Source: Yuukianura sp. NJ FZ-2021
Taxonomy: Eukaryota
Assembly: GCA_046563655.1 (NCBI GenBank)
Contig: CM102290.1
Span: 1,922,001-1,986,000 of the forward strand
DNA: 64,000 bases
Direction: 5' to 3'
Positions 1 through 61,000 of the stretch are shown in pieces; position 1 is the first letter of the stretch; every line of letters starts with the position of its first letter. A program made the translations under genes and the position numbers. The notes beneath the pieces are model-generated. The model was given only the letters and a program-made list of their open reading frames with translations. It was not told where the DNA came from and did no database searches.

Positions 1-52
1 ACTTTAGGTTTCAGGAAACGATTTCTTGATCTCTTGGTATTTTTGATTGCAG

Positions 53-12000: not shown

Positions 12001-12423
12001 ACGCCCGTCTCCCAAATTTCACTTGTACGTGGAACTGTCCCTTCCTCATCCTCTACAACTGTAACATCCATTCCAGTCACCACTAAAACTTCTTTACTAC
12101 GACAAGCTGTTCCTGTCACAACAGAATCCCAGAGACCACAACTATTTCAACGTCCACAGATCATCTCTGGCCCAATTCCAGCCAACAGTCAATTCAACTT
12201 CCACCTTGGGAATTCCCCTGGTCCAACTATCCTGTTGACCAATGTACCCAGAGGAAATACGAATGATCCACCGAAACTGATTGTCAACTCTTCAACGGCT
12301 CCAACAACAGGAGTCTATACAATCTACACAACAACAACTACTACGACAACGGCCGCCACGGCTGGACCTCCCAATCCAAGTCACAGTGCTGGGCCGTCGC
12401 CCGGGCAACAGCCGCAGGAATAA
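53..12423 (+). CDS. dom: Helicase domino (SWR1/SRCAP/p400 family SNF2 ATPase), long p400-like isoform; multi-exon, N-terminus lies before the window
   Basis: Spliced ORFs give an HSA region ([14 protein letters not shown]) and a split SNF2 ATPase ([63 protein letters not shown]). These are followed by a PPTPP..DVYID motif, a Myb/SANT-like domain ([22 protein letters not shown]) and a Q-rich tail. Introns are GT-AG throughout. Confidence 0.96.
2332..2563. mobile_element. MITE family 1 (CAAGG termini, 8-bp TSD; P- or hAT-type), in a domino intron
   Basis: CAAGGTTCC...GAACATTG ends, subterminal CAGGTTGTCCAA/TTGGACAACCTG inverted repeat, perfect TSD GTTTGCAT. Confidence 0.9.
4559..4805. mobile_element. 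MITE family 3 (TAGGGAG...CTCCCTA ends) in a domino intron
   Basis: TAGTGAGTCTGCGTTATAAATAA / TTATTTATAGTGCAAACTCCCTA inverted ends; homologous to 13561-13919. Confidence 0.82.
5959..6173. mobile_element. MITE family 1 copy inserted at a domino splice donor
   Basis: CAAGGTTC...GAACCTTG ends, AACAGGTT/AACCTGTT subterminal repeat, perfect TSD GGTAAATC. Confidence 0.92.
7253..7414 (+). CDS. dom: Alternative C-terminal coding segment of a short domino isoform (DOM-B/SRCAP-like), 53 aa
   Basis: The exon starting at 7024 has an internal donor CAG|GTGACA at 7252/7253. If this donor is not used, the frame continues VTTKSPSPP...[11 protein letters not shown] to TAA at 7412-7414. Confidence 0.65.
   Translation: MTTKSPSPPVLEPPKETVVKRSRRQTLKPKEPEPEPVKTGPARSTRARRKTMF
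8781..8819 (+). CDS. dom: 39-nt phase-0 micro-exon of the long domino isoform ([13 protein letters not shown])
   Basis: Flanked by TTTTGCAG and GTGAGT; joins ...MLPQ to VYGPPTPP (exon from 9159) in frame. Confidence 0.8.
8924..9072. mobile_element. MITE family 2 (long ~50-bp TIRs)
   Basis: CAGGTCATTAACGCGAAAAC...TTGGCAAC mirrored by GTTGCCAA...GTTTTCGTGCTAATGGCCTG; related copies at 46678 and 54339; no clear TSD. Confidence 0.82.
10540..10622 (+). repeat. CAA/CAG poly-glutamine coding tracts in the domino tail
   Basis: Translates [26 protein letters not shown]. Confidence 0.9.
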
Positions 12424-12646: not shown

Positions 12647-15600
12647 TTATTCGGGTTTGGATTCTAAACTCGTCTGAAAGAATATCCGTGCGGATCTAAG
12701 GTTGTATCGCAAGAGATGAAACTCTTGTAAATAGTCTTGGACACGCTTAGCCGTAAGCGTATTGGCCTGTTGCAATTTTTCATCACTTTTGGATTCGCGA
12801 ATAATTTGAAGAGCACGTTTTCTCTCTTCAACTAGTTTATGGGTTACGCCACTAAACCACTGTAAAGAGTCAAAGTCCGCATCTTGATCTAAAACTTTGA
12901 GCATATAGGCCAAACCTAAAGTAAGATTCGACAGATTATAGTTAAATTTGACCTTGAATTGTTAATCTAAGATTCTAACATTTAAGTTTGACCTTGTCTT
13001 ATGTCTTACCCATTGGAAATCCGTCATCTGTAAACAGTGTAGAATGTTTTGAGTTCTTGGCCAATTTTTCTTTGCATGATCGCATGTGATCCACGTAGGA
13101 AAGTGTAAGTGCAGGGATGATGACGAAGAAGTTTTTCATGTGAGCATTGCTAGGAACGGAGTAAATCGATTAGTGCAGGCAGACTCAGTATGGAAACTGA
13201 TTAATTAAAGTAATTAATAGTAGAAGCAGTATGCCAGCATACGTTGGTCGGAGACAGGCCTCATGGAAGGCAGAAACGAGGAGTCGGAAGTAGGAAATGT
13301 CCGGAGACTGCTGATGTTGAGTCACATCTCTCAACACGGCTTCTAAATTGATCGCTGCGGAGCGCATTTCATCTTCCAGTGCTCCTCGTTTTCCATTTTG
13401 TTCACTAGTTGTAGTAGTTAAAGGTAGAATAGACTCCAGTTGCCCTGGGTTAATGTCCAGTTCCGGTAGAAAGCGAGAGGCTTGAGCAAGGTAATGACGT
13501 CCGCCCGAGACAACAAGTCGTACAAATCTGTATTAAAAATGTATAAAATGTATTTATTAATAGGGAGTCTGCGTTACAAATGATAGAAGTTATGAGAATT
13601 ATAGAATTTATCAAGTCACGCCTCCTTCCACCCGCTGCCACCCCACTTTGTAACGGTTTCTCCGATTGGTCGATTTCTTATCTGTGACGTCAGTTCCAAA
13701 CTGTTCTCAGTTTTGGGAATTATAGACTGTGATTATAACTTTATCCAAAAAGTTTGAAAAGTTACGTCACCGACCGCTATAAATTCTATAATTCCTATAA
13801 TACTGAAATTATAGACCGTGATTATAACTTGAGGAATCCAGCAAGTTTGAAAAGTGACGTAACCGACGGCTATAAATTCTATAATTTCTATAAAACTCGT
13901 TTATAGCGCAAACTCCCTATAGCTAGGTTACTAGGTAAAAGTAGTAATGTTATAATGCTAAACAAGTTAAATCTAAGAATCTCTTGACAAGAATTTGGTA
14001 AACGGTTGTCTTTTTTACATTCTAAGTTAAACCAAAATAAAAACAAAATTGTTAGTCTTACCCCAGAGTATTTCCAATTTGTGTAATTAGGATTCTGAAT
14101 TGATCTAATGGTGACAGGTTGGATTGCGTGAGACCAAGTTTCCGAATTCCTTTTTGAAACTTTTGGGCTTTGTCATAGGGATACGAGTAAGTAGAACTGA
14201 TGGCACCCGTAGTCATCTCCTGATTTTGTCTAGCAACTTTGAATGCTCGAAGATCCCTCGTTAACTTGGACTTGATTTGCTCATCATACAGAAAGTGTGA
14301 GAAGGAATTGATTTTGGTTTTGAGGAACTGATAGGCACAGTTGACTGTGCTGTTGGACATGCCAAGTCCATGTGTCCGAATGGAATTGGCCAAGTGACGA
14401 ATTCCGACTGTTTCTAAATGCTTGTTCGGTGACTCCACTTGAATGAAGACTTGGTTATTCAGGTTGTAACTGAAGTCCGACACGAACTTTTTAAGGTTCC
14501 GGACTATGGCCAAAATGTCTTGTCCCTGAAAATGTCAAAAAATTGACAGAGATGAATTCAGAAACCAACTTTTTTTTTCTAAAATAGAATTTTTCTAAAT
14601 TTTTTTGGAAATCTAACTTGTTCTAAGGCGTGTCCAGGAAGATGGTCTTCAGAAATATGAAGATTGTACTTGTCCCGTCCAAGAACTCTCATCGTTCCGT
14701 ACGATTGCCAATCATGTAGAGCAACGGAGGCTAAATTGTAGAAGTTCTTGCTCAGATGATATTCTGCCTAGAAAGTATCAAAAGTTGATACAAATTATTA
14801 AAATTTTAGTCTTTAAACATGTTTATCCCGACTTACGTTGAATCTTGCATTGATTTTGTGATCTCCGAGAACAAGCGATGGTAACCTTAGAAAAACCTCA
14901 AAGTCTTTGACTCCAATTCGAAATGGCGAAGAGTCGCTGGACTCTTTATGGTTGTGAAGGTGGGAATGCGTCTGAAGTCTTAGATTATTTTCTAAATCTG
15001 TACAGAGTTTGTCAGTTACACAAGTCTTCAAGTAGGATTCAATTTCACGGACAAAGGCCTTCTGAACATTTCCTTGGGAATGGGGACTGTGACGATCCAG
15101 AAGTTGGAGACAGTCGTCCAGAATTAACTCTACAATAGGAAACTTGGAACTTTCATGTTCATTGGAATACAGTGACGAAAAGTAATTGGAGAAGAGTTGG
15201 CGATGCCAGTAGGCCGAGGAACCATTACACAGAGTCTCAATATCGTCCAGTAGATGTACCATGTAGTGGATTCTGTCCAAAACGGCTTTGACAATTGGTC
15301 TCTTCTCTTCTACATCCAGAAAGCAACGGGCCTTGGACCAATCAAAGGCCACTTGAGCCGCTAGAAGTCGTTTTTCTGACGGGGGGCCCTTAAGAACATT
15401 TTCCAAAATGGCGATGATAGTGACTGCTTCTGTTCGGAGTTCCAAATCAGTTCGGTTGGATTTGTTGAGGTTTGAGAGGATAGAGTCCTTGACGTCCTTG
15501 ACATGACTTAGACCAATGTGAAGTGCTGTTTGAAGAATGAACAGTACAGTGTGACAGATTTGGACATTGAAGCGATAAAAAGTACACTGAATGACCTTGA

Positions 15601-17179
15601 GGAGTTCCAGATGCTGCATGAGATAGGAAACTAATTGTAATGTTACTGGTCGTCCCAGTGTAGCATGAAGGTTCATGATTACTCGAAAGTTGATGTTGAG
15701 CTTTTGAGCCAACTTGACTCCATCGAGCAAAACAGCTGATCGTTTGGCCAAGTCTTCGCGTCGTAACTGACTAATGTCACGCCGGTACATGAGTTCCTGG
15801 AGTTGAATTGCCCAGAAGTGAACGTCGAGATGAATTTTGGCAATTGTAGATTGAATTGTACTGATTTTGGATTCGAGAAAGAGGTGACGAGCCTGTGCTT
15901 GACCTTCCAATAACTTCATGTCAACAAAATTAATTTGATTTCCAATTTGAAGGGAACTTAGAAAAGCATCCGGTGTCCAAATTAAGTGACCACCGATCGG
16001 TATCGCTGGAACTTTTCGAATAACTGGCCAGATACGATTTCGAAACGTTTTACGAGTGTCAAAGGTTAAAAGAGATGTCATCAGCACGTAGAGTCCAGTT
16101 AGAGCTATTGGCCGAAGTTCGTCAGCTCCATTCAATGCATTTTGCTCCAGGGTGGCTTCTTCGGCAGTAAAATAAGCCATGAACTTGTCCAGTAGTGTCA
16201 CGTTCTTCCTACTTCCCTTAAATTGTGTACTAATAAATTGAAGCACATTTTTGAAAAGACGTCCGCCCAAAATGCTTTTATCCAATTCTTCCAATTCACT
16301 TTCTACTTCCAGCAGGCTCTCTGAATCGATATCAAAATTGGCTGAATCCGCCCGTACAGACGTGATCATCCGTTTGTACTTTGTCCAGTGCTCGATAAGT
16401 AGTGGTTGACTGGTTATAATTTCGTCTATGACAATGACCAGAGCTACTAGATTTCCAAGTTCTTGGAAAAGTGTATGAAAGTTGACACCGGCGACGGATA
16501 CGACATGTGGACGTGCATCTTTGAACATGGCTTCCAACTGTAAACATGAATGGAGTAACAGGTTGGATACATTTTCAATAAAGTCCTTCAGTTCATACAA
16601 AAGTGGAAGACAACTAGAGAGAGCTACGTGACCTTCTCCTTCTGTAACGGACGTCGACTGTGGAGGTGAACACGACAGAAACGAACCCTGGTCAGCATCA
16701 AATCCATCTCCGTAAAGCACAAATTGAAAGACAAAGTGTTTCCAACCAAAGGATGTCATTTCCTTGAGTTGACTTGTAAGTGTAACTAGAACTAGCATGA
16801 TTTTCTGCACGTCGGGATTCCCACCGTCCGGTCCAGGAAAGCAAAGGAGCTCTTCAAAGGAACCCGTTTCCAGAAATGGCCCCCATACGATTTGAATTGG
16901 ATCTGTTCGAATGTCCCAAACGTTGTGAGTGAGAGCATAGGTTGAGACGAATGGCTGGTAACCTTTCTTCTGTCTATTATGTTCCGTGGATGATATAAGC
17001 GAGTCTTCTTCAATCCCTCGACCTTGATCGGTAGTACCATTCTGTTCATATTCTACTTCTCGATTGTCCAAAATGTCAATTAGGTGTGAGGAATGATTTT
17101 CCAGGAATGTATTGAATTTCTTCACATAATTTTCTGTCAGCGTCTTGTTACTAACAAGCTCATTTTCGGTTCCTCTCAT
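12647..17179 (-). CDS. WASHC4: WASH complex subunit 4 (SWIP/KIAA1033), multi-exon
   Basis: Motifs include VWDIRTDPI, LENNLRLQTHSHL, FSYNLNNQVFI, HLANSIRTHGLG, DQFRILITQIGN, FTDDGFPMGLAYMLKVLDQ and FDSLQWF. The start is inferred at ATG 17179, just after an acceptor at 17205/17206. Confidence 0.93.
13561..13919. mobile_element. MITE family 3 copy with an internal ~90-bp tandem duplication, in a WASHC4 intron
   Basis: TAGGGAGTCTGCG / CGCAAACTCCCTA ends; the block AATTATAGAC..GTTTGAAAAGT.ACGT..CCGAC.GCTATAAATTCTATAATT occurs twice. Confidence 0.85.
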
Positions 17180-17460
17180 GATCTGCGATAATTCTGCAGT
17201 TGAACCTGGAATAGAAATATAATTTTCATAATCTGATAATTCACGACAACTTGTCGTTAATAGGTATGGTCGTATCGTTATTCGCAGAATTATGATGGAG
17301 TGTGTCTTAACTTCAAAGCCTGAGAGTTGTCGATCGATAAAAATCCGTTTGTAAAATTGGCCTTGACCTACTTGAAAGGAAGACGACACTTGTGAATGAT
17401 GAATTGAATAAAAGTATTTCCAAAATGACATTTTGACTGTACCTTTGCTAAGCTAAATGA

Positions 17461-32600: not shown

Positions 32601-35309
32601 CAACAACCCTGTTGCTTTATACTCCTTTGAGGTAATGTATGATAGTCAGAATCCATGTTTTACTGTGGGAAAACGCGAAGATAGAACGGGCACTTACGTG
32701 ACCTGGACACGAGATGACCTCAAGACTCTCAAAAGAGGAGACAGGTTTAAAAAATAAATTAAAAAAAAATTCAAAATTTTTGAAAATTTCAATTCCGTTT
32801 TTCAGAATTGTCGAAATCAATGGAACGATTATCATTGCCAAAGGGGTGAACCGTGTTGAAGAATTTTGGTTAGATGAAGGAAGTACTAGCGGGAACGGCA
32901 GCGGAGTGGTTCCGTCGGACGACACGATTTTGGGCGACATGGGTTCGAATCCGTTTCGGCTCGTGGTCATGCGTACTCCGCCACCCCCACCTCCACCGCG
33001 CATTCCAAACCGTGAACTCCACGTAAGTTTTGTTAACGTTTTTGAAAAATTCTTTTTTTAGTTTTAAGTTCGAGAAAAGTGAAAACACTTTTGTCGAGAG
33101 TGACTTTTCACTTTTGTTGGCCCATTTTTTGAAAAAAAGAAAAACGGAAGGAGCTTTTGAACCCCCGCCTCTTTTGCATGCAAAAACACACGAGAGACGG
33201 TTCGTGATTAATCAGTACGTGGTCACATTATTTTGCACTACGTGCCAATTAACTTTAACTTTAACAAGGATGAGACGATTGCTTTAGATTAAAATCACCT
33301 AGTTCTCAAATTCCAATTAGCCTGTACACTCATCATCCATCATGCAAATGGAAGAAGATGCGCAGAGCAAGGTTTTTTGACTTTGATTTCCTTAACAGGT
33401 TGAGTAATACCTCGTGTTTTTTTTATTTTGCAAAAAAAGGGTCTTTGATTTCATGGTATCGTAGTCATAACAATACAGCCGAATTTTTTAAATTTTATAT
33501 ACGAATTGGTACCATTTTTTGGATTGGTACCAAAATTGGTGCCAATTTTTTTTTCTTTTCTTTTTTTTTTGTCAACAAGCGAGGTAGTACCCAACCTGTT
33601 AAAGAAAATTCATTTTTCGTTGTCAAGCAACCTTGCGGAGAAGTGCAGAAGTCTCCTGTGCACAACCGTAATTTCCCTTGAAATTAATCGTTGCAGTAAT
33701 TTCTCATGATTAGTTTCCTTTTCAATGGAAATCATAAAAACATGTTGTGTTGTTCAGATGCTCAAGGAGGAAGTGGCAATTGTGTCTGCAAAATTGGAGC
33801 AAGTGAATGACGAGAAGCGTGAGATGCAGAGTGTCATGGCAACACTGCAGAAAGACCACGCCCTCTGGGAAGAAGCGCAGGAGCGTCTGCGCACTGACGC
33901 TGACAAGTTAGTCAAGGAACGTGACAACCTTCGCACGGAGTCTGTGCGACTCAAGCATCGCATTTCGTACCTCGAAGAACAAGTAAGAGTTGTGTAAAAA
34001 TTTTTTGATTAGTCCAAAAACTAATTAAAATGTGACAGAACTAGAAATTTGAAAATTCATCTTTTGTAAGCGTCTGTGTAATTTTGTTTAACGAATTCTT
34101 AATTTTTTATGCTTCCTTTTTGTAGTGGTGTCCCACAAACTAGTTTTTTTTAGTTCATTTTGCAAAAGTTATTTCAAAAAACGGGCCAGAACTTGCCGAA
34201 TTTGAAAATTTGAAGAAATTGGAGTACTTTTTGTTGCAAGGTTTATTTTTTTTTAAAATTGTTTTTAGGTGGCAGAATTGATACATCGGAAGGACATGAC
34301 GAATGGCATTCATCCGCAACCAATCACAGTTTTTCAAAAAGGAAATCAAAAAACGATTGTTGCTGAAACCACAACAAAAGAGAACAACCAGTGTTCAAAC
34401 AGTCCCTCCAGGCCACCAAGCGTCACTTCCAGGTACTAACTTTTCAACAAAGTTTGTTGACTTTTGATTTTCTTTAACAGGTTGGGTAATACCTCATGTT
34501 TTTTCGATTTTGCAAAGAAAAAAAACTGTATTTTCATTTCAGGGCATCGTAATCATAGCAATACAGCCGAAATCTTTTTTGAATTTTGAATGCGAATTTT
34601 TTGGATTGGTAGTAACTTTTTGTTTTTTCAGTTTTTTTTGTTAACAAACTAGGTAGTACCCAACCTGTTAAAGAAAATTAACTTTTCGTTATCAAGGAAC
34701 CTTGCTTTTCAAAAAAAATTTAAAAAAAAGTTCTTGAACTTTTTTTTCCTAATTTGTAGAAACGGAGAAACCAAGGCTCTGAAAACAAGGCTTTGGGAAA
34801 CATTTCGCCGAGCTACAACGAGTGACGCTCGTTCCGTCTGTTCCGTCGATTCCCGAAGACCGAATCCCACCGAAAACGGGTATTTCAAAAAACGGTGTCC
34901 GGATTCAAAGAAAATCAAGTCCGGTACCAATCCGGAACCACCGCAGAAACCGATTCGTCTGTCTCTTCAAAGAGCCACAAGTACAAATAATGTTTACTCA
35001 ACGGGAGTCGTTGGAAGTCGAGTGGACGGAATGACCTTGACCTCGGGAAGTTCCGGAAGTGGTGACCTCACTGAGGTCACGACTAACCAAGGACTGTTGC
35101 TCAAGAGGTCAAACTACTCTGAACATACGCTTTTACCTGATTGGGCTCCGAGTCATGACGAAGTTCGGTCCGAAGTTTCCGAGAAGAAGAAAAATGGAAG
35201 CGCGGGAAGCAAACATGGAATTCGGTGGCCATCGCTACGACCTGCAAGTAGCATGAGTTACACCATGACGAACAGCAGAGGAAACAATATGCAACAAGTT
35301 AAGTTTTAG
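29622..35309 (+). CDS. Uncharacterised coiled-coil + PDZ-like domain protein, ~9 coding exons
   Basis: In-frame spliced exons start at 29565, 30600, ~30995, 31483, 32590, 32806, 33758, 34269 and 34760. They give MSQLETLEAKMAKIEVSLS, heptad-rich segments and the PDZ signature LKRGDRIVEING. An upstream exon lies at 27380-27476. Confidence 0.8.
33368..33635. mobile_element. MITE family 1 copy in a PDZ-gene intron
   Basis: CAAGGTT...AACCTTG ends; internal sequence similar to the 34448, 48991 and 55960 copies; TSD not clearly preserved. Confidence 0.88.
34448..34704. mobile_element. MITE family 1 copy in a PDZ-gene intron
   Basis: TTTAACAGGTTGGGTAATACCT/AGGTAGTACCCAACCTGTTAAA subterminal inverted repeat; perfect TSD CTTTTCAA. 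Confidence 0.92.
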
Positions 35310-35918
35310 AATCACTTTTTTGAATTTTTGAAAACGAGTTCAAAATTTCAAAAACAAATCAAAATTTCAAAACCTGGAGACTTCCCGGTTACAAACACAA
35401 AAGGTGTAAAACCAGCAGTCAGCAGCACCACGATTTTTTTTTTTGAAAAAAAAATGCGTTCCCGGTGTCCAATCTTGTTCAACTTTATCGTTATTTATAA
35501 AAAAAAAAAAAATAAATAAAATCCAAAAACTTTAAAAAAAAAGCGTTTAAAAAACTCAAACTTATTTGTTTCAAAACTTTCTTTTTCGTTTTCTTTATTC
35601 AGTACTGACGTTTTGATCACTGGAGTTAATTCCAGATTTTGAAAAAAAAATTAATGAAAAACTTGAAAAATTACCCTCGTTTTCTCAAATGAAAAAAAAA
35701 ACTAAACTAATAATTACGGTTGGTGTGACAGAAAAATTAAGTAAGTGAAAAGTTAACTATACGCCTATCAAAATTAGAAGTATGAAGATTACAAAAAATT
35801 TTACAGTTGAGTATCAAAATCAACCAAAACTAAGGGCACATGCTCTTGTATTTTATCTAAATTTTCATGTTTTATCCCAATTTTATCCAAGATATCGAAG
35901 ACTAAGTTTATCCAATGC

Positions 35919-36523
35919 CTATTCCTCATTGACTGTAGCATCATGGTCATCACGGAGTGACTTTTCATAGCGATCCAAAGCCTTTTCGCCTTCACTAATT
36001 GCCAAGTTAGTAATTTCCGATCCAGGGCCAAGGATAACCTTGACTGCCGTTTTGATTTCTCTCGTTGAAATCGTTTTCTTCCCACTGCGTTCAGCCAGTT
36101 GACCAGCCTCAGTTGCAATTCGATGTACAATGTGGTTCAAAATGAAATTGACGCTTTGTAGCGTTGAGCGTTCCAATGTAAAGTCAGGGTGGAGTGACGC
36201 CAGAACAGTGTGAATTCCAGTGGAGAAGTCTTCTTTTGCTGGAGGACTATCCAGCGCAGACGCTTTGACCTTTGGAGGCTGGAAAACCAAAAAATATATG
36301 GAGGATTTGAGTTAATGGCCATTACACGCATGACGGAAACATTGAGTGATACAACTTAAGTTGACCTTGGTAAGTCATGAGTTAACTATGGGATGTCAGT
36401 GACCTTGCAAGTTTGAGCAGGAACGCGCGGTTGACCTTTGGTAGCCAGCAGGGATGAGCAGGTACAACAAATCCGTTCAGCCTTGCCTGGTTTGCAGTGA
36501 GGGGAGGATTGACAGTCGTCCAT
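35919..36523 (-). CDS. Divergent histone H2B variant; histone-fold exon 35919-36279 plus inferred first exon 36404-36523
   Basis: VLASLHPD..RIATEAGQLA..TISTREIKTAVKVIL..AISEGEKA aligns to the H2B fold. A strong acceptor TTTTTGGTTTTCCAG precedes 36279. The first exon (CAAAATG start, AAG|GTCACT donor) is less certain. Confidence 0.88.
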
Positions 36524-37296
36524 TTTGAAAACGCAGTTGAAAAAATAGTAAATTGCACGTTTGTAGAACTTTAGGCTGACACTCCGACTTCGGCTGATGT
36601 CAATCCAACACTGAAAGAGTCTACTGGACACCGGACACTCTGGACATGTCAGCAATACACCCACTTTTTTGTTATACAGTCCTACTCCTACCTGCAGAAG
36701 CCTGTATGTTTGTGGCTTGTGAGATATAGAATTTGGACAGAAATTAGGAATCATGTTGTCACTGTCAGTCGGTGTCAAATGACAAGTCGGAGGTCATTTT
36801 CATATGTTAAACAAGAGTAGAGTTCTTGTCATTTCAAAAGTGAACTGAATTCTTACATGCATTATGCCCAAGTTAACATAAAGACACGAGTAATTGTAAT
36901 GTCGATTTGTGAATTAACATTCGTTACGCTATTTTTTTTCAATTAGATTTCATAAATTTCAAAATTCACAATTTCAAAAATAGATTTTTGGTAGCTGTAA
37001 GGACGTAAGGACGTGGTTTTTGAAATGTCTCAGCGTGCCCCAACTGAAACCAGCAAATTTTTGGAAAGGCGCCAAAACGAGGCCGAAATTCAAATTTTGG
37101 ATTTTGGAGGTTTTTCGGGTTTTTCATTCAAACTCCGGACAAAGAAAATCCGGGTGCTTTTTGAGAAATTGTTGACCGTTGGAAATTGTTCATGCGGAGT
37201 TTTTGTTACTGAATTAAACGCTAATTGCTCATTGTATTTATCTACGAGGTTACCGGACATTAGGACTCGATTGTGAACTGAGTCATCGAATTCGAG

Positions 37297-38538
37297 ATGT
37301 CATCTTCCATGTCATCGGTGGACGTGAAGAAGGTAAAGTAAAGTGTTCTCTGCTTTTATTAATTAACTCATACTGTTATTACGTTATTTTGATGACCATT
37401 TGGTTACTCTATTCAGTAAATGCAAATATAAATCCGAAATTGCATGTTGTCACCTGTTACGTTACCCTCTAATTTATTCCTCTATTACTGTTACAGGGCC
37501 AGGGCAGTGAAGGTTTGACGCGAAAGGCAGGTCAAGTGAGTGGGAGAGGACGTCATGGACCGAAGAATCGGAAACTGAAGCGTCATGCTTCTAAGTTTCG
37601 GGCAATGAAGCCTTTACCATCGGTTTCATCAGGCTACCCCGGTCGCCAATCGCCTGACATTACATCTTGTGTCAGTACTACAAGTTCCCATGCTTATTGT
37701 ACGTCCAGCGCCACTCGCAAATTACCGGAGAACAGTGGAAGTGGGGATGAGCTTACAGAGAAGGAGCCGGTCGATGTCAAAGCTAAGGGTGGGAAAAGTG
37801 TGGGTACTTCTGACGCGGCAGCTTATGATGAGAAAGACTCTGCCGAAGCTATTATGGAGTGGAATCCTGCCAATCGAGCACTACTGTACAAGTTGATGCT
37901 GGATGTGGATTTCACTCCTATAGGTAAATAACACTGACTAAAATTCGTACTTCTTCACATTTTGTTTTTTCACGATCAAAAAGTTGTTTGTCTTCAATGA
38001 TAAGTATCGTAAATTTATATTTTCAGCCCTCCAGCGGAACTTCTCCATGCTGGGAGTCCATGCTAGGTGGTGCAAACTCATCAATAAAAATATCAATACT
38101 ACCGATATCTGGGCACACGCCAATTCTTTATACGATGTGGAAGGACTGGTGAGTCTGCTAAACGCTATGCATTACATTTCTTTCAATAAGTGGATGTTCG
38201 TTCACTCATACATACTCCTTGGTCTTGACTTTGGACACTTTCCGTCAGGTTTGATATGTATTTTGTCTTAGGATTCGTTGCGACGCCCGGATCCAAAGGC
38301 TCCGAAAACGACTGAATTCAAGTTACCAAACAAGATTCAAAGTATGGTTCAAGCCGCATTCGAAGTCCCAAAGTCTGCACATGCCAAACGTGGCCCTATT
38401 AGTGGTAAACCAGCAGCCCCAGTGCCATCTACTAGTAAGGGAGCAGCAGTAGAGAACCCGGATGACAACGACGACGCTGATGTCGAGTCGGTCCATGGCA
38501 CTGGTCCTATTAGTGACCCTGACCCGGACACATTGTGA
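37297..38538 (+). CDS. MRGBP: Divergent MRG/MORF4L-binding protein (MRGBP/Eaf7, NuA4/Tip60 subunit)-like; exons 37297-37332, 37497-37923, 38027-38148, 38272-38538
   Basis: EWNPANRALLYKLM..PIALQRNFSM..IWAHANSLYDVEGL..EFKLP matches the Eaf7 pattern W..E..LF.AM..KPVG.N.HF.M..IW.HL..YD..AL..F.LP. Confidence 0.78.
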
Positions 38539-39120
38539 AAATCTCCAGCTCATTCTCAAATGGTTCTACTGTCTACTCAACTAACTTAGACACCATGACG
38601 TAAAGTTCTGTCTACAGCCACCACCAATTTAATTCTGTCTAAAGCCACTACTAACTAAAGTTGTTTCTCAATAGTTTCTAACCGTCCCTAACTACAAGTT
38701 CTAAAATTATGAGACCCAGTTTTTTCATACACTTCTACTTTCTTGTGTTCAATATCTTAAGATCTTCTATCTTTTACAATTTACCGGGATATTATAACTT
38801 ATTTATTATCATGCACAAGTCCATGTTTATAATAAGAAAGTTAAGGTTTTACTAAACCTGTACAGACTACATTGTAATAGTAATTGTTATTTGTATCCTA
38901 AAAGTTAAATTGTACAGTTCGCAATAGCTCTTCTATCACTTTCCAATAAATTTGTACACCATTTGTTATGTTTATGTGTGCTGTTTCATTCTTTTTATAG
39001 GTCAAAGGCCATCAAAGTGTTTTGACAGATCGTTGACCTGTGACCTCTAGTCACAGTTTTTTGAATTCAGACTTAAAATAGGTGGCGGTTTTTAGATCAG
39101 AATTAGTTTTTAGCTGGCAA

Positions 39121-39362
39121 TAAGGATTAACGACAGTAATTGTACCCGCATATCTTGGCCACTCAGTCGTTTGTAGTGGCTACATTTCCACCACTTTTAG
39201 TGACTACAGTAGGTGGCTACACCTGAGTGGCAACGTCAGTCCAGCCTAGCCTAACCTAAAGTGGCAACATAAGTTTCCACACACTGTAGAAACCCATTCT
39301 AGCCACTAACGATGGCAGGCTAGGCTACACTGTGCGGTTACAATGAGTGTCGTTGAACCTTA
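39121..39362. mobile_element. MITE with ~30-bp imperfect TIRs and internal AGTGGCTAC/CCTAA repeats
   Basis: TAAGGATTAACGACAGTAATTGTACCCGCA versus TGCGGTTACAATGAGTGTCGTTGAACCTTA (inverted). Confidence 0.72.
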
Positions 39363-39653
39363 CTTCAACTTTTTTTTGTCATCATTCATTGAGGAAGCAA
39401 CTTCCTTGAGGCCGTCGGTCAATTAATCACGAATTAATTGTTCAACAACTTGAGCGCTGATAAAGGAAGCGGAAGCGACATCCGCATACTTCCGGTAAGC
39501 AGTATCGAATAGCACTTGAACTCTAGTTTACCTTATTGGTATAAAAGAACTACATATTCCCATTTAATACGTTACGTTTAATAATAAGTAATAAGTACTG
39601 TGCATCTCATAAATTACATTGCATCTGATCTCAGATCCAAAATTCTGGACAAC

Positions 39654-40642
39654 ATGGAGGAAAAGGTCAAAACTACTACTCCCGAAAATCCTCAAGAAGC
39701 ACGACGAAAGGTCGTTCTTCATACAATTGCTGCTCTAACATACGAAGTTGGGTACACCAATGTTCAACATCAAGCACTGGATTTGCTTACAGAGCTATTT
39801 CAAAAGAGTAAAAGAATCCTAAAATACTGATCGATGTTGACAATGGCTACAGATTCTTCTAACTTTATATCTCTCTGATTCATAGAATTAAGTTCGCTGG
39901 CCCGGACTACCATGAAGTATGCTGAAATTGCCTCAAGAGTGGAACCCACTGTTGGAGATATAACAATGGCTATGATTGAGTTAGAACATCCAATTGATCC
40001 CGTTGGTCTCCGAAGCTACAGTCGTCGACACACTCGTCCAATTACTCCTACTCCACAAGGATTAGCGCCGGCTCGAATCCCATTGATACTGAGTGCTGGA
40101 AAACGTAGATGTTTGCCATCCCATATACCAGACTACTTTCCACCTATGCCTGATCCTCACACATACATCCGTACCCCGGTAAACTTGCAATTATCCTAAT
40201 ACTTTCTAAGTAATCCTAATTTTTATTATTGATTGTTTTGTATTAGACTCATAAGCAGCCATTGACCGACTACGCAGCATGTCGAGAGAAGATGTCTCAG
40301 CAGAAGAGAGACTTGGAACGTTCCTTGTCCAAATTCTACTCAAGGACTTTTCCTTGTTTCCTGTTTTTTCCAGACAACAAAGACTTGTTTCCCCTGATGC
40401 TTCCGAAGAACGTTACTTACCACAACGCAGTCATCTGTCGAGATCAAATCTTTGAAGAGGAACAGAACCTTCCTCCTATCAATCTCGTCAAAATTGAGAA
40501 ACCAAGACAACCATTCTCCAACTTCGACAGTAGTGAAGACAGTGACACCGAGACCAAATGGGAGTTGATTGATAATCCATTTCTACGCCCTGCTCGCCCA
40601 CCAAGTCCACTCAAGAAGGCTGGAACCAATCCTACTAACTGA
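39654..40642 (+). CDS. TAF8: TFIID subunit 8 (TAF8)-like; exons 39654-39807, 39886-40178, 40247-40642
   Basis: N-terminal bromodomain-associated histone fold (ARRKVV..ALDLLTE..RVEPTVGD), TAF8_C motif HIPDYFPPMPDPHTYIRTP..REKMSQQKRDLERSL, and terminal IDNPFL. Confidence 0.9.
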
Positions 40643-47267: not shown

Positions 47268-48842
47268 TTAGGAGACATTGTCATCAGCACAACCGCCGCC
47301 ACCTCCACGGGGGTTTGAAGTTACTGAGCAAAGGTCGGCACTTTGTTTAGCACTCAGTTCGTTGTACCATCTACGGAGTCCAGTGAGCACTACACAGGCT
47401 ACAACAAGTGCTGACCCTATGTAGCTATACAGGTCAGGCGTATCATGCAGAAGAGAGATTTGGTAGAAGAAGGACAGCACAATGTCCAGCGATCGAGCGA
47501 CAGCTACTGGACCAGCATTTTCCAGTTGCAGCGATTTCGTCAACAGGATTTGACCTAGGAATCCACAGATTCCAATTCCAAGGCACTGGATCACTGTAAC
47601 CCCGGTCGTAGGCAGAGTGAATCCATCAAGTGCTACTGTCAGCACGGCTCCAAAGATGGCCAAGATCATGGAAAACCAGAAGACAGTAACGGCGTAGTGG
47701 ACATGTTTCAGCTGACGAAGGACTATGAATGCCAGGGCAGTAAGCATAGCTGCGCAGACTCCACAGAAGATCCCTACCATATTCGTCCATGAATTGGTCA
47801 GCTGATTTTGACTTTGGCCTGGGAGTACAGTGGGATCCAGTAGACCAAACGACGGTTTGCTCACCAAAACAACTCCGAGTACAGTCAGCACAATCATGCT
47901 CACGTCAAAGAGAGTACAGAGTTCCCCGATGCAAATACAGGCAAAGAGGGATACGAATACTGGCGAAGTGAAGATCACGGTCGATGCATCGGCAAGCGGG
48001 ATGAGATGGATTGAGTTGAATGCCATAATGAGACTGACCGATCCTAGCGTTGCTCGAGCCAGAAGGAGACTGCGTGACCCGGCAGGGCCCAAGAAGCTAT
48101 TTCCAGATGAAATGATGAGGGGGCTGACTAGGAGGGCCTGAAGGGCCCCCCTCACACAAAGGAGTTCCATCGGATGTAGCGGAGACACTTTGACAATGAG
48201 AGAACTCGTTGCAAAGAAAATACATGAGATGGAAGCTAACAAGATTCCAAGAGACAGACTAGACTTGACCGGGGGGTTCTCTTTTCCGGACCCCCCTCCA
48301 CCCCCCTCCTCTTTTGAACAACTTTCATCCAAGTCCTCGTCTTCTTCACTTTGATGAAGGTGGGCCATCACGGGAGTTCGGACTTTGGCACGACGGAGGC
48401 GGCGCAGAAGTCTATGAACGAGACCTTGCTGAGCCGGACCGCGGATCAACGGCAGCTGATCGCCGAGTTCGTTCGGTTCAAGTCCGAAGTCGGCATTATT
48501 GGTCTCAGAGTCGGTAGAAATTGAGAGAAATGTTGGTCCCGGAGAGTGACCGTCGAGGTCGTCAAGTACTTTCGTTCGGTACTTGAGTATAGACGAAGTG
48601 GACATTGGATCATGACCACCGTGGTGGTGGTCCGGTTCACTCGTGGCATCGATCATGTCTGTCATGGGGCAGTTGGACTGCGCAGAAGTGAGGAGATTCG
48701 TTGTTTCTTCCTGATCCAAGGCGTGCTCAAGGTCAAGGTGACTATCGACGAGACAATGGTTGTCACTAGGATGTTTCCCACCTACGTTATTGGGCTGATG
48801 AATTAAATTAGTGGCATAGAAGGGCGGTTGGTGATGCCACAT
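47268..48842 (-). CDS. SLC35G1: SLC35G-type (EamA/DMT) membrane transporter, intronless CDS, 524 aa
   Basis: About ten hydrophobic segments with IPLADASTVIFTSPVFV, LTVLGVVLVSKP and GQILLTKSLQLENAGPVAV motifs. Confidence 0.87.
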   Translation of the reverse strand: MWHHQPPFYATNLIHQPNNVGGKHPSDNHCLVDSHLDLEHALDQEETTNLLTSAQSNCPMTDMIDATSEPDHHHGGHDPMSTSSILKYRTKVLDDLDGHSPGPTFLSISTDSETNNADFGLEPNELGDQLPLIRGPAQQGLVHRLLRRLRRAKVRTPVMAHLHQSEEDEDLDESCSKEEGGGGGSGKENPPVKSSLSLGILLASISCIFFATSSLIVKVSPLHPMELLCVRGALQALLVSPLIISSGNSFLGPAGSRSLLLARATLGSVSLIMAFNSIHLIPLADASTVIFTSPVFVSLFACICIGELCTLFDVSMIVLTVLGVVLVSKPSFGLLDPTVLPGQSQNQLTNSWTNMVGIFCGVCAAMLTALAFIVLRQLKHVHYAVTVFWFSMILAIFGAVLTVALDGFTLPTTGVTVIQCLGIGICGFLGQILLTKSLQLENAGPVAVARSLDIVLSFFYQISLLHDTPDLYSYIGSALVVACVVLTGLRRWYNELSAKQSADLCSVTSNPRGGGGGCADDNVS

Positions 48843-48990
48843 TGATGCTTTGATGTTCCCTGTGATTTCTTTGGCGCGTTTTTTTCAAATTCTTTGGTTA
48901 GGTGAGACTAACTTGGTCCTATGTTGTGTTAAAAATTCAGTTTGGAATGAATCTTTGAAGTATTTATGATCACTCTAACTTATGTTAGAG

Positions 48991-54522: not shown

Positions 54523-55076
54523 GAACCGTGTTGAACATATTTTGAAAGCCAAGTTAAAAAAACGAAGTTACAGTAATAAGTGGTTTGTATTGAAACTGGA
54601 TTGATATTTTACTGTGGTTCAAATGCCGGTGTAGTGAGAGGTATATATTATAGTCTAGTTGTAGTTTGTATACAACTCTTGTGGTTTTCTAACTTGAAGT
54701 TTATTTGTCTTCTGTAGGAATTGAAGTGATAGTGGAAGGAAATCTAACCAGAAATAAGACCTCCCTTCTATAAGGCTGAGTTTGTGCAGAAAGAATTACG
54801 AGAACCTCCTCACCCGGCCCATCGTTCTACCGTAACCAGAGATGAAAGTGAGTAAAAGTATCCTCTTTTAGTCTTGCTTCGTGTCTCGAACAGACGTCAA
54901 CATCAATGTTCTCATTTACTAAAGTCTAACGTAATGTCCGTCTGGTCCTAACTTTCAGCCGGACAGTGGAGGAGACTGAAGAGCTGAATTGTTGTGATTT
55001 AAGAACGTGTGGATTGAAGAAATCAAGAAGATCAACACGGAACATTTCTGCTGCAGAATTTGAATTTTGTTGAAAA

Positions 55077-58000
55077 ATGACAAATAGTAGTGAGGACATG
55101 ACTTCAGAGGGCTTGGCAGTGAATGGAAGCTTGAAAGGAGTTGACAGTGGAGGAGGAGTCAATGGGAACGTGAATAGTCTTCAGTCGTCAAACAGTTTCA
55201 ATTCTTCATCTCTGAGTGTCAACAATTATGCTGGATCGGAGAAGAGTAATCGAAAGAAATCTGTTTGTTCTGCACTTGGAGATTCGTCGTCAACTGAAGG
55301 CGGAGGAGGAGGGAATACGTTTGCTACAATTCCATTTGGAAATATACGTGGAGAGAAAGTTTTACAAGTAGTTCAAACATCAGATGGGATGTTGGTCATC
55401 AGTAACTACCGGCTATTTATTCAAGGAAAAGAGAGTCACTACAACATTCCTCTTGGTCTTGTAGACCAAGTTGAGTGTCGTGACATCTTCTACCTCCATA
55501 TCAACTGCAAAGATGCAAGATGTATTCGATGTACTTTTCCAAATAATGAAACGGTCGTTGAAGCCCATCGCAAGATTCAACAGACTCTCCTCTCTGCCAA
55601 ATGTTTGGAAGAGTACTTTGCCTTTACATTTTTCGAAAAAGTGGAGACTGATTTATCAGAGGAAATGAAGTTACAACTGGGTTCAGATTTGCCTCCTCAT
55701 CCAACACCCAAGGAGCGGTTTGATGCTGAAATTCGTCGAATGGAATTCAATGTCCAGAATCCGTGGAGAATTTCTTATGAGAATGAAGACTATGAACTGT
55801 GTAGTTCATATCCAAGACACATCATTGTGCCGAATTCCATCGACAAAAAGAAATTGGAACAAGTAGCCTGTTTCCGAAGTGCGAGACGGTTTCCAGCCGT
55901 TGTTTGGCGGTAACTAAAAATTCTTTTTCAAATTTAGATTTTAGTTTAGTAGTTGCTTTCAAGGTTCCTTGACAACGGAAAGATTTTCTTTAACAGGTTG
56001 AGTACTACCTCGCTTGTTGACAGAAAAAAAAAGAAAAAATTAGTACCAATTTTAGTACCAATCCGAAGAATTGGTATATTCTTATGCAAAATTTAAAAAA
56101 TTCGGCTGTATTGTTTGACTGCGATGCCCTGAAATGAAAAGACAATTATTTTGCAAAATCAAAAAAACAAATAGGTATTACCCAACCTGTTAAAGAAAAT
56201 CAAATATCAACAAACCTTGGTTGCATGCCTTGCGCTCTAAGGATTTATTCACTGACGGACTGACTTGACGTAAAGCCGGAAAGACACTTTTTATTGTAAA
56301 TGATTGAAAGAGAACTGTCACTCTTTTTTAAAAAGTTTTTAAAGCTGTCAAAGGGAGGATTTAAGAGAATTTGATTCTATTGTTTGGAGTCCGTTAGAAA
56401 TAGAAACTCCAAGTTTCATGGAATTGTGTGTTATGAGATTATCCAGGGTTAGGTTTGGACGATGATATTCTCAATTACTTGGGCAAGGTCATTGGATGAG
56501 TTTGTAAGTTAATTAACTCTGCTCCTGCTAGGATATATCGTGTTGTCTGTCCACAAAATTCAGCAAATGTTGGACTAAAAAGTGCAAAAAAAAAGTTTTT
56601 AGCACGTTCGTCAAACTGAACAACTCATAGTTAGACGGAAGTGAAAAAGTTATTTGAAAACTTTTTCCTTTTGAAGTAGGAACTGAACAAGGTAACTCAG
56701 GTTTTTGCAAATTTTGGAATGATTGTGAAAAAAAGTTTTCACAGTAAGATTAAAGAAGTATTTCGTAATTCAATTTTGTACAAAAAAAGAAGAAATTTTT
56801 AATCTCAGTAAGTAAAAAAATTGGCTCGTTTTTGCTTTTATATTTTAGTATTATTTCCCTTGTGTGACATTTTTACCTCAAGGGGAAACGGGAAGGTCAA
56901 AGGTCATGCCTGTACTTTACTGACTATGTAATGGAGTTATAATTTAAGTAGGGATTAAGTGACGCCGTAACCTTAAGTGCATCATTTTCAGAAGAATGCG
57001 TGACAATTTCTTGGAAAAGCATTAATGGACATTGAGGAAAAAATGGAAAAATTGAACAATAGTTTTTTCTTTTGAAGTTGACAGACAACTTGAAAAATTA
57101 TGAAAGGAATTTTGAGAAAAAAACAGAAAGGAATTGTGCTGGTCTTCGGTTGAGGTTTTTTTTAAAAGTTGACGGTTGAGCAAAAATTCAAGTTAAAGCT
57201 TGTGGTTTTATTAAGTAGTGAAAGCTACTTTATGCATCAACCTTGTCTGTCTGTCTAGCCGGCCGTTGGCATCAATTATGTCGAAACATTTTCGGCATCT
57301 CTTATCTGTTTTACGTCATCTTTCGCTACTTTTGTCCACTCCGGGTTATGCCCGATTTATTTTGGTTTATTTTGATTTTTACATGGTGACTTTGTATAGG
57401 GAAAGTTTATGTCTGTTCAGTGCGGTTTTGAGGTGAACAAAATCTAGTCAGGAAGCAAAGCGGCAGAGATTTGGCTTAAGGAACAACAAAGACAAAACGT
57501 TTTGTGTCCTTGCATCTCGTGTTCAAATATTAAATTGTGGCTTAGTCCAGTAATTTGTGGTTGATTTGGAATCTGGAGCGGAGGAAGGACTGATGACTTT
57601 GAAGTCAGAGAAATCAAAGTCCAAGCATAGGATGATTTCATGTTTGTTCTGACTTTGGACTTAACTGTTTAAAATGACTGATGCTAAGGATTACTCTTTT
57701 GATTGTTTTGGTTTCTTTTGTTCCATTGTAGGCACCGTGGGAACGGAGCTGTGATATGCCGTTGTAGTCAACCAGAAGTAGGATGGTTTGGATGGCGGTC
57801 AACGGAAGATGAAGAACTAGTTCAAAATATTATTCAAGCATGTGCCTATGACCGATGGCCCCAAACGACTGGAGAGACACAGTCACTTCCATTGGACAGC
57901 TTGTCGTCACCTACAAATTACAGTGGAGGACTCGAAGTTGTTCCAGAATTTGCGAATCCAGTCAAGGTAAGTCAAGGTGTAAACAATTAAGGAACCAACA

Positions 58001-61000
58001 AAAGTTGCTGGAGGGGAAAAAGTTATTGATTTTGGTTTTTGTAAAAAGATCCAATTATGACCTTAGATTTTCTTTTGATCCTAATTTTCAGAAACTATTG
58101 ATCTTGGATGCAAGGTCATACACTACTGCCGTAGCCAACAGAGCCCGTGGAGGTGGCTGTGAATGTCTTGAGTATTATCCAAACTGTGAGATCCAGTTTA
58201 TGAACCTTGCCAATATTCATTCCATTCGAAAGAGCTTCAGTAACGTCCGCCAACTCTGTGCTCTACCGTCGGATCAAGCCAAGTAAGTCAAGCCATAATC
58301 CACACCATCATTGGTCTTTTTTAGTTGTAAACGATCCATTCAGGAGAGCTTTTGAGCAGACAGCACTGGAAACGCAACTTTGTCCTTGTAAAATTATAAA
58401 GTGAATGAGAATGAAGATGTGCAGATTGGACCATCTTCCTTCCTGTTTTGATTTTTATTGTTCTTTAAAACTAAACTGAAAAACTTTAGTGTGAAAACGG
58501 AATTGGAATAGTAGTTTCTTTTATGACCAGACAAATGATGGTTATCAGTGAGTAATTTCCGTTTTCTCAGGATATTTTCAAGTAAAGTGGAACAGAACAG
58601 GTCAAAGGTCAAACAAAAACTGTTGCATTTTTATACGTAAACTTTGGATTTTTGCTAAACTCTGCTCACAGAAGTTGTGTTGAAGTAAGGTCACGCATTG
58701 GGACACAATTGATTTATTAGAAGTTAGATTTGGTTCCAAGAAAACAGGCAAAAAAGTTTACTTTTTATACTTTTTTTTTAAACTTTGTTTAACGTTTTTG
58801 CCTCACAAATTACGATGAATCACTTTCCACCGCCATCAAAACTACGACTACTGTCAGTGGATGCAACAGGAGAAAGTTTGAAATTAGATTTTTAAATTTC
58901 TATTTAGATCTACTTCACTTCGAGACTTTGTCTGGATTTACCTTGACCTTTGCTCTTACTTTATAACTTTTTTTTTGATAGTTGGATCAATATTTTTTGT
59001 TTGGCTTAGTTTTCTACTACATAATGGGTATCCAGTCTTTTTGAAGAATTTTTTTTTCAGATTTATGCAAAGGTAGTTCAATGTTCAAATTGGCTCTGTT
59101 GTAGATAGAAAGTTGATCCAAGGTATTATTAAGTAACGAAAGCTTCTTTAAGGTTCACTTTGTCTGTCTGTCTGGCCGTTCGTCCGTCCGTCCTTCCGTT
59201 GACGGCGATTGTTCTTCTAGACTTTTTTTTCCTGAAAACTTCTTGAAAAGTAAATTTTGGAGAGTTATGGATTTTTTTTCAATTTACTAAGGTTGAACGA
59301 AGTGAGTTGAAAAACGGTTTAATAGAATTTTAAATTGAAAGTCAAAACTTAAAAACCCGGCTGGCGATGTTACCATTGATGGTGTGTGTTAATTGACGCT
59401 TATGATGACGCTTAAAAATGCTTTTGGATTTTTTTTCTGAAAAGTTATGTTTTAGAAAGCAGGGGTTTCTTCTTATGTATCTGAAAAAAAAAACCACTAA
59501 CTGTGGACTCACCCGTGACTTAGAAGAGGGAGGCGGATGTTTGCGTTTTTTTTTTGAGGAATTTTCTAGGAAACCCTGGTTTTGATATTTATTGAAGCTC
59601 CAAGTCCATTTTTTTAGTTTGATGAAGCAAAAGTGTGGGAAACTTTTTCTTAAAGTTTGTCGAATCGTCTAGTCGTAATTTGTTAAGTAGCGAAAGCTAC
59701 TTTATACATTGGCCTTGTCTGTCTGGCCGGCCGTCTCCGACAATTATCTCGGAAACGGTTCAACATTTCCGTGATTTGTTTTCGCTGGTAGACAAGTAGT
59801 GTTCAGGGGATGCTCACTATAAAACGGTAAAAAAAACTTTTGCATACTAGTATCTCATTACCCTAAGTAACTCCCTTCCGGGTCAAAGGTCAACTTTTTT
59901 TGAGTTATTACCCTTCACTACTACGGTGTATTATGACTCACTATGATGTGCGGGTGTGAGCATCCGTTTGCAAATTCAGTGCCTTCTTTCGCTACTTTCG
60001 TACACTCCGATTTACGACCATTTCATTTTGTTTTGCTAATTGACATAAGGTCATTTGGATTAGGCTGAGGAAAGTAGTTTAATAGAAATGAATTTGGAAA
60101 CATTTGCTCCTAATATGATCTGTGTGGATTAGGAGTTGTACTTTTTTCCCTTTTTAGTCTATTATTTGTTCTTTAGTACTTGAGATTTGTAAAGTGGTGA
60201 CGTTATTAAGTAAGTATGTTAATAATATATTTGGTTTTTGTTTGTTTTCAGTTGGTTCAGTCAATTGGAGGGTTGCAAATGGCTTCAGCACATGTCTGGA
60301 CTAATGAAGGCAGCTGTAACTGTGGTGACGGCCATAGAGAATGATGGACGCCCTGTCATGGTCCATTGTTCAGATGGATGGGACAGAACGCCACAAATTG
60401 TCGCTCTGGCAGAAATACTCCTTGACCCGTATTACAGAAGCCTTGAGGTGAGTGGTCACGTTAGCAAAATGGCCAATTTCTTAAATTTAGAAGCATTCTG
60501 TGACTTAGGTTGAAGGAACGCCAGCATTCCTTTTAAAACAGGGTTTCTGCTTTTAAAGCAAAGGAATAAGCTATTTACAGCAAAAAGCAAAGGATCCACT
60601 TTAAAAAAGCACTTTTACGGAACACTGCAACTACTTGAGTATATCTGTTTTGGCAAGGTGACTTTGTCACTGTTCGGTGGCCACTGGTCCACCATTACTA
60701 ATCTGCACGTAGAGTTGACATAGTGTCACTGGTTGGACAAAAGTTGACGATTTTTTGTGGCACTTGGAAGTGATAGAAGTGACAGAAGATGGAGATGAGA
60801 ATGCATTTGTAATTGTATTTTAAATGGAAAATTATGTTATGGAAAATTCATAAGATTGGAACGACTGACACCTTCAACTTATTCAGCACTTTGACTCATT
60901 ACGTCAGCACGTAGATTCCAGAGAACTTCCAAGTGTGGCACTCTTTTTTAGTGTTTGAAAACTGACAGGAGTGTTCTGAATGAGATACTGTTGGCAGCTT

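Follow-up and report, generated by a model that had tools for sequence, protein, structure and literature searches.

Does a protein that has moved this far from the H2B consensus still work as a nucleosomal histone, and is the gene that encodes it a working one? The question is raised by an exon on the minus strand of a 64-kb window (the whole 64,000-nucleotide stretch analysed here) from Yuukianura sp. NJ FZ-2021, which a preliminary description had read as a spliced, highly divergent H2B variant. Judging from its sequence, we consider it probable that the locus is a real coding gene for a highly diverged, solitary H2B variant of the replication-independent type, with a loose hold on DNA and no ubiquitylation at K120. 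Taken as a whole, the earlier interpretation stands for the H2B family, the variant-type gene features and the missing K120 lysine; it does not stand for the proposed cysteine-rich exon 1, which carries no codon-usage signal and has an atypical donor. The exon at the centre of the analysis is the following:

35919..36278, minus strand: main coding exon, 119 codons followed by the stop TAG at 35921-35919

Family assignment and departures from canonical H2B

The exon product comprises, in order, 17 pre-fold residues, an H2B fold (alpha1-L1-alpha2-L2-alpha3), a lengthened GPGS turn, an alphaC helix and a 12-residue acidic tail. Its translation, preceded by one extra Q from the last codon of the intron, served as the query P0001. 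A phmmer search against PDB sequences returned 179 distinct matches at E<=0.01, and the best 60 of the 179 consisted entirely of H2B chains and engineered H2B fusions. Among single-copy chains, yeast H2B.1 matched best (E 5.2e-17); the values for Drosophila and human H2B were 1.7e-15 and about 2e-14. When 1.84 billion representatives were searched exhaustively with HMMER, 2172 matched at E<=1e-3, 103 at E<=1e-10 and none at E<=1e-30. Identity to the best 150 library representatives ranged from 31 to 49%, lying mostly between 36 and 49%, and the proposed identity of about 40% to canonical H2B was reproduced against the canonical animal-type H2B P0030 (39.6% over 96 residues). Of the 28 library matches whose sequences were inspected, one, a bacterial repeat protein, is spurious; the others comprised H2Bs of ordinary or variant type, viral-looking histone fusions and mis-fused histone clusters.

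Pfam profile PF00808 matched the protein at 22.4 bits, just over its cut-off of 21.4, and PF00125 at 23.4 bits, under a curated cut-off of 26.4 that is an operational threshold and not a biological feature. The Pfam scan of the protein revealed no further domain, and no localisation signal was found in it. In the Atlas, the best named cluster was H2B at 0.91, with CENP-W lower at 0.89. Membership of the NF-YB, TAF12 or CENP-W families was considered and rejected, given that the alphaC motif of H2B is present and that the matches are to H2B. Together, the PDB, HMMER and Foldseek matches (the latter described below) assign the protein to the H2B family and to no other histone-fold family, in agreement with the preliminary description, and by its sequence exon 35919..36278 encodes a clear H2B homologue. 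As a separate observation among the library proteins, P0045 (435 amino acids) and P0125 (356 amino acids) resemble multi-histone chains, with H2B-H2A-H3-like parts in one polypeptide and, in P0045, apparently an H4-like part too; both are reminiscent of the histone fusions of giant viruses.

Departures from the canonical protein were located in an alignment with 94 library H2Bs, from which multi-stretch and very long matches were excluded. Across the fold and alphaC, identity to the majority consensus is 0.45, compared with a minimum of 0.51 and a median of 0.86 among the 94 H2Bs; by this sequence measure, the protein is more diverged from the H2B consensus than any of them. Fifty columns are at least 90% conserved among the 94, and here 29 of these are kept and 21 changed, about half of the changes being conservative (V>L, M>L, F>I, F>V, R>K, L>V, L>I, V>L and K>R). 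The individual departures listed in the preliminary description were all recovered. KEDF is found where the canonical sequence has KESY, and KALDRY where it has KAVTKY, with R at the K120-equivalent position (a column with K in 87/94 H2Bs and R in 4/94). At the PG turn, LL-PG-EL has become LGPGSEI through two single-residue insertions, G85 and S88 of P0001, in columns of which neither is occupied in any of the 94 H2Bs. The pre-alpha1 majority K K R R K K R K is replaced by A L D S P P A K, leaving no basic patch, and the C-terminal extension is acidic, with a net charge of -4 over its 12 residues. The loss of the basic patch can be regarded as safe, since the residues concerned are encoded by the fold exon itself.

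Other changes fall on presumed surface or contact positions, among them the arginine just before alpha1 (column 15; R in 76/93 H2Bs, A here), the S55-equivalent in L1 (S in 93/94, E here) and the Y83-equivalent (Y in 76/94, R here). The lost arginine is one that we take to be the minor-groove arginine, and the Y83 tyrosine presumably faces H4. In what we take to be the human numbering, the changed positions include Y40 (to G), Y42 (to H), K46 (to A), S55 (to E), Y83 (to R), K108 (to N), H109 (to L) and K120 (to R), and the kept positions include E76, E93, E105, E113 and K116, with E105 and E113 presumably representing the acidic-patch glutamates of H2B. The L2 loop retains K, K and T. The net charge of the fold is +1 (median +5 and range +1 to +8 among the 94 H2Bs), and that of the 20 residues before the fold, when these are read with the candidate exon 1 at 36523..36404, is also +1, against an H2B median of +7. 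The pI is 5.97 for the exon-2 product and 7.0 for the 159-residue model spliced with that candidate exon.

The K120 lysine (K123 in yeast) is the target of Bre1/RNF20-type ligases, which mono-ubiquitylate it. The earlier claim that the protein cannot be ubiquitylated at K120 is borne out to the extent that this lysine is absent and replaced by arginine; it holds for the K120 position only, given that K116 is retained four residues before.

Predicted pairing with H2A and hold on DNA

An AF2 model built on the 94-H2B alignment (pLDDT 87.3) has helices at residues 20-30, 38-65, 73-84 and 89-119 and contains both the histone fold and the H2B-specific alphaC helix; as the alignment behind it consists of H2Bs only, the model is not independent of sequence homology. 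In this model the turn before alphaC grows from two to four residues, and alphaC continues through the acidic tail. Foldseek returned at least 285 matches in the PDB at E<=0.001, the best 48 of which were all nucleosome, histone-octamer or H2A-H2B entries, with the H2B chain 1hq3_F as best match (TM 0.90, rmsd 1.3 A). For complex prediction, P0187, a foreign, canonical-looking H2A from the library search, served as a stand-in for the H2A partner. The predicted complex scored 0.91 (best control 0.01) in a test that can be passed by memorisation and that measures likeness to the H2B interface, not binding, since H2A-H2B dimers have been solved many times. The score passes the mark set for this test, which 51 of 78 solved complexes and 2 of 108 mismatched pairs also attain; contacts agreed between runs to at least 95%, with a partner pLDDT of at least 87. 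As far as such models can tell, H2B-like pairing with an H2A-type partner is most likely.

These features suggest how a nucleosome containing the protein might differ from a canonical one. With the handshake fold and alphaC kept, an H2A-type partner would be bound in the manner of H2B, and much of the grip on DNA would be lost with the basic patch, the pre-alpha1 arginine, the net positive charge and the L1 serine, now a glutamate. The change of the K120 lysine to arginine would remove the regulatory ubiquitylation site. The protein has also gained an extended turn ahead of alphaC and an acidic tail with a helical prediction. Where expressed, the variant would be expected to replace H2B in a subset of H2A-H2B-type dimers, and the resulting nucleosomes may have looser DNA and a more acidic (alphaC) surface, and may be blind to H2B mono-ubiquitylation signalling at K120. 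The less stable nucleosomes put forward in the preliminary description are an expectation drawn in this way, from the lost charge and the altered DNA-contact positions.

A near-neutral protein with an acidic tail would make a poor DNA wrapper, and this fits a role outside the nucleosome equally well as it fits a loose nucleosome. The locus might accordingly encode an H2B-derived protein without nucleosome function, which acts elsewhere with its fold intact; it may also have kept a partner, either of the H2A type or another histone-fold protein. It could, for example, be a structural component of sperm, as is mammalian H2B.L/subH2B, or a soluble protein that binds H2A-type histones or serves as their decoy. 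We judge this to be unlikely, yet a reading that deserves to be weighed. The retained equivalents of E105 and E113 in the acidic patch and of E76 and E93 (numbering as we assume it), the K, K and T kept in the L2 loop and the high confidence with which the H2A interface is predicted all argue for a nucleosomal protein, as does the lack of a localisation signal or extra Pfam domain in the scans described above. They have to be set against the fold net charge of +1, the exon-2 pI of 5.97, the combined loss of the basic patch and pre-alpha1 arginine, the acidic residue in L1, the acidic tail, and a consensus identity (0.45) under that of all 94 representatives (minimum 0.51); such roles are also raised for H2B.L and H2B.N in the available part of PMC8857922. 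In a more specific form, to which we would give a slightly smaller chance, a near-neutral arthropod-type H2B derivative would grip an H2A-type partner, wrap no DNA and have its task away from nucleosomes. It might, for example, trap or escort H2A or H2A.Z as a soluble protein, or have a structural role in germ cells comparable to that of mammalian subH2B. If true, a non-chromatin H2B would have arisen independently in invertebrates.

Gene structure, genomic setting and constraint

Whether the variant acts in or outside the nucleosome, the reading of the locus as a real gene depends on its exon structure and coding signals. The histone-fold exon is contained in a minus-strand ORF at 35922..36311 and starts at 36278, directly after a strong acceptor, ttttttggttttccAG, read off the sequence. 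Given that no ATG occurs between the upstream stop at 36314-36312 and the fold, an intron and an upstream exon are required. Candidates for a first exon running from an ATG to a GT are numerous, up to 3 kb upstream of the fold exon; the acceptor and some of these candidates are as follows (a slash marks the splice boundary):

36279..36300, minus strand: splice acceptor, a pyrimidine-rich tract and then CAG, with AG at 36280-36279, in phase 0 to the fold frame
36404..36523, minus strand: candidate exon 1 of the preliminary description, ATG at 36523, 40 codons, 6 Cys, donor AAG/GTCACT at 36403, 125-nt intron, phase 0
36692..36754, minus strand: another candidate for the first coding exon, 21 codons from an ATG at 36754, donor CAG/GTAGGA, phase 0, 413-nt intron, same acceptor
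36326..36331, minus strand: alternative minimal candidate start, ATG CGT/GTAATG, 47-nt intron, same acceptor
36862-36857, minus strand: similar minimal candidate start, ATG CAT/GTAAGA, 578-nt intron

The gene can thus be described as spliced, as had been proposed, because the fold exon has no ATG of its own; the exon 1 put forward with that proposal, 36523..36404, is only one of several possible. Its donor has C at +3, a position occupied by A or T in 7/7 donors read by eye in TAF8 and WASHC4 nearby. Codon usage was scored after training on 3237 codons from long exons of the window; by this measure the exon reached +0.1 bits, less than the average of 2.5 for random 40-codon windows free of stops. 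In view of the weak donor, the missing codon-usage signal and the other candidates, the cysteine-rich N-terminal tail of the 36523..36404 model is not to be relied on. The alternative exon at 36692..36754 scored -1.1 bits, and a start at 36331 would, from its sequence, leave an H2B-like protein almost without an N-terminal tail. The fold exon scored +17.1 bits in frame (0.144 per codon) versus -6.5 and -82.4 in the other frames, which is similar to the 0.07-0.17 bits per codon of five real exons held out of training. Also present on this strand is a 135-codon open frame (36386-36793), running from upstream of the ATG at 36523 through candidate exon 1 into the intron; its part upstream of candidate exon 1 (36524-36793) scored -0.8 bits and shows no coding-type codon usage, and the frame includes a GTAGGA...TTTCAG pair (36691..36611) whose removal would also keep the frame.

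Given how many first exons are possible, the histone fold could also be the C-terminal part of a larger protein whose gene has further exons farther upstream, in which case the 159-residue model would be incomplete. Long library proteins with a terminal H2B fold (P0090, P0091 and P0122) count in favour of this, as do the ATG-to-GT candidates up to 3 kb upstream. Nevertheless, the upstream DNA at 37001-38535 is taken up by ORFs of another gene on the plus strand and has only short ORFs on the minus strand, and no Pfam domain was found in minus-strand ORFs between 36389 and 39500, so that we hold a larger protein to be very improbable.

The 3' end and the surroundings of the gene are those expected from the preliminary description, which had noted no histone stem-loop and no neighbouring core histone genes. 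Past the stop codon, four copies of GATAAA lie within 65 nt, and the following feature was found:

35594..35599, minus strand: AATAAA, the only canonical poly(A) hexamer in 619 nt past the stop, about 320 nt downstream

Across the whole 64-kb window, the gathering score was attained by no Rfam family, and none of the 13 weak Rfam matches (E<=10) within 35300-36000 was the histone 3' stem-loop. Among the 134 of 178 ORFs of at least 70 amino acids that were scanned with Pfam (the 44 in 1-12423 being left out), PF00125 was hit only here, and tblastn across the whole window with H2A, H2B, H3- and H4-containing queries gave no other match below E 0.3. The lack of a stem-loop and of a cluster, the need for an intron and the AATAAA about 320 nt past the stop agree with the replication-independent type of gene that had been suggested. 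The neighbours are ordinary single-copy animal genes, among them SURF1 and prefoldin, as well as the following:

1-12423, plus strand: SNF2 gene of SRCAP/Domino type
12650-17452, minus strand: WASHC4
39588-40639, plus strand: TAF8, three exons, with Bromo_TP histone-fold and TAF8_C matches, about 3 kb from the H2B-like gene
47271-48884, minus strand: EamA transporter gene
55074-64000, plus strand: myotubularin-FYVE gene

The best named relatives of the WASHC4 product are springtail proteins (Orchesella; 37-38% identity), and one metagenome protein is 74% identical, a weak pointer to an animal host, perhaps a soil microarthropod; the Atlas pointed no further than to an animal. A functional link of the H2B-like gene to TAF8 or to the SRCAP/Domino-type gene was rejected, adjacency alone being no evidence, and the proximity of TAF8 is probably a coincidence. 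Several further features of the region were recorded. The last large exon of the SRCAP/Domino-type gene (10000-12423) holds an 807-codon low-complexity stretch rich in Gln, Pro, Ser and Thr. A plus-strand gene at 37473-38535, in which no Pfam domain was found, is arranged head-to-head with the H2B-like gene, with about 950 nt between start candidates, and two of its ORFs, 37942-38268 and 38272-38535, share one frame with a single stop between them. High-copy repeats are located at 33234-33701 and 34404-34871 (cores 33432-33636 and 34520-34705), and also at 39084-39551, with contig depths 10 to 250 times those of the flanks in all three runs; two copies are 1.07 kb apart and 79-88% identical, and one of them has 31-nt inverted arms (34464-34494 / 34651-34681) and a MITE-like look. 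The unassigned ORF 34653-35309 begins inside a repeat copy.

Orthologues were sought by several routes. A word-indexed protein search yielded seven candidates, none of them scoring, and the exhaustive HMMER search found no match of at least 50% identity in protein libraries that may lack close relatives; the lineage-specific status put forward in the preliminary description is a tentative reading of such results. Peptide patterns matched 482 times in a metagenome scan and 29 times in viral contigs, with none confirmed in either, and a degenerate DNA pattern for REIxTAVxxxLGPG matched once, in a chance frame of a G+C-rich, bacterial-looking contig. As no viral pattern match was confirmed, an origin from viral histones is not supported. 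Five sequencing runs contain the stretch, all of them DNA on record. One contig from a second sample (X5) has 0 differences over 35815-36108, and another, over 36298-37122, has 18 substitutions and 9 gaps; two of the seven substitutions that were located (36425 and 36500) fall in candidate exon 1, both at synonymous third positions. Being nearly identical, X5 says nothing on long-term constraint.

These results bear on whether the exon belongs to a silent or dying copy, namely an old H2B duplicate or retrocopy that is still open by chance and under neither expression nor selection. Such a copy would be consistent with runs that are all DNA on record, a fold exon without ATG joined to no convincing first exon, the lack of an orthologue in the libraries searched, the PF00125 score under its cut-off and the high-copy repeats nearby. 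Conversely, a frame of 119 codons that had drifted to about 60% protein divergence would be expected to hold stops; the codon usage of the exon (0.144 bits per codon) falls within the 0.07-0.17 of real exons, core positions are retained or conservatively swapped, and the strong acceptor is exactly in phase. We regard a dying copy as improbable, if somewhat less so than the larger protein discussed above. Four features point instead to a gene that has probably been kept by selection for the fold: a frame still intact after about 60% divergence, codon usage of the coding type, conservative changes in the core and an acceptor that is in phase.

Comparison with known H2Bs and significance

Among the core histones, H2B has to our knowledge the smallest number of known variants, and the well-described ones come mostly from mammals, plants, echinoderms, cnidarians and protists. 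With canonical replication-coupled H2B, the variant described here has in common the order of fold and helices, the H2B-only alphaC with its SEG..KA..Y motif, an H2A interface predicted to be like that of the solved dimer, and 29 of the 50 highly conserved columns. It differs in its consensus identity of 45%, its insertions, the absence of the basic patch and of the arginine before alpha1, the R at K120, the near-neutral fold and the acidic tail, and its gene differs in needing an intron and in having no stem-loop and no cluster.

Among the mammalian variants described in the available part of PMC8857922, H2B.W (H2BFWT/H2B.M) is likewise diverged and carries a C-terminal extension, but it represents a mammalian clade and is intronless, unlike the variant here. 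Orthology to H2B.W is unlikely; no library match is above 49% identity. The same part of PMC8857922 presents H2B.K and H2B.N as intron-containing genes with poly(A) signals and germline or early-embryo expression. The introns and poly(A) signals are likenesses to the present gene, and a lower charge is a further likeness for H2B.K; in contrast, H2B.N is without the alphaC that the variant here has, and H2B.K has a near-canonical fold, which the variant here does not (PMC8857922, available part). H2B.L/subH2B, compared by its description in that part of PMC8857922, is H2B-derived, differs from H2B in its H4 contacts, in L2 and at modification sites, and has been proposed to act outside chromatin; it is mammalian and intronless, unlike the present variant. 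For molluscs, the available part of PMC12210499 gives only three H2B variants across 28 species. A literature search for arthropod or springtail H2B variants found none by title or abstract opening, a thin search that is no proof of absence.

The closest resemblance in detail among the 94 library H2Bs was found in P0079 (208 amino acids, from a Logan assembly), which is 43% identical over 95 residues and has 5 of the 21 departures of the variant (G22, A28, I47, H50 and R104), the most of any of the 94, the next having three. Unlike the variant, P0079 has no turn insertions and possesses a long basic N-terminal arm, and the states common to both may be convergent.

By analogy with other fast-evolving H2B variants, expression of the variant is probably restricted, perhaps to the germline, which is a guess. 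As judged by its sequence, the variant is an unclassified member of the H2B family. It provides a natural experiment on which features of H2B serve dimer formation and which serve DNA wrapping and signalling and, if expressed in germ cells, would represent an invertebrate case of fast-evolving germline histone variants.
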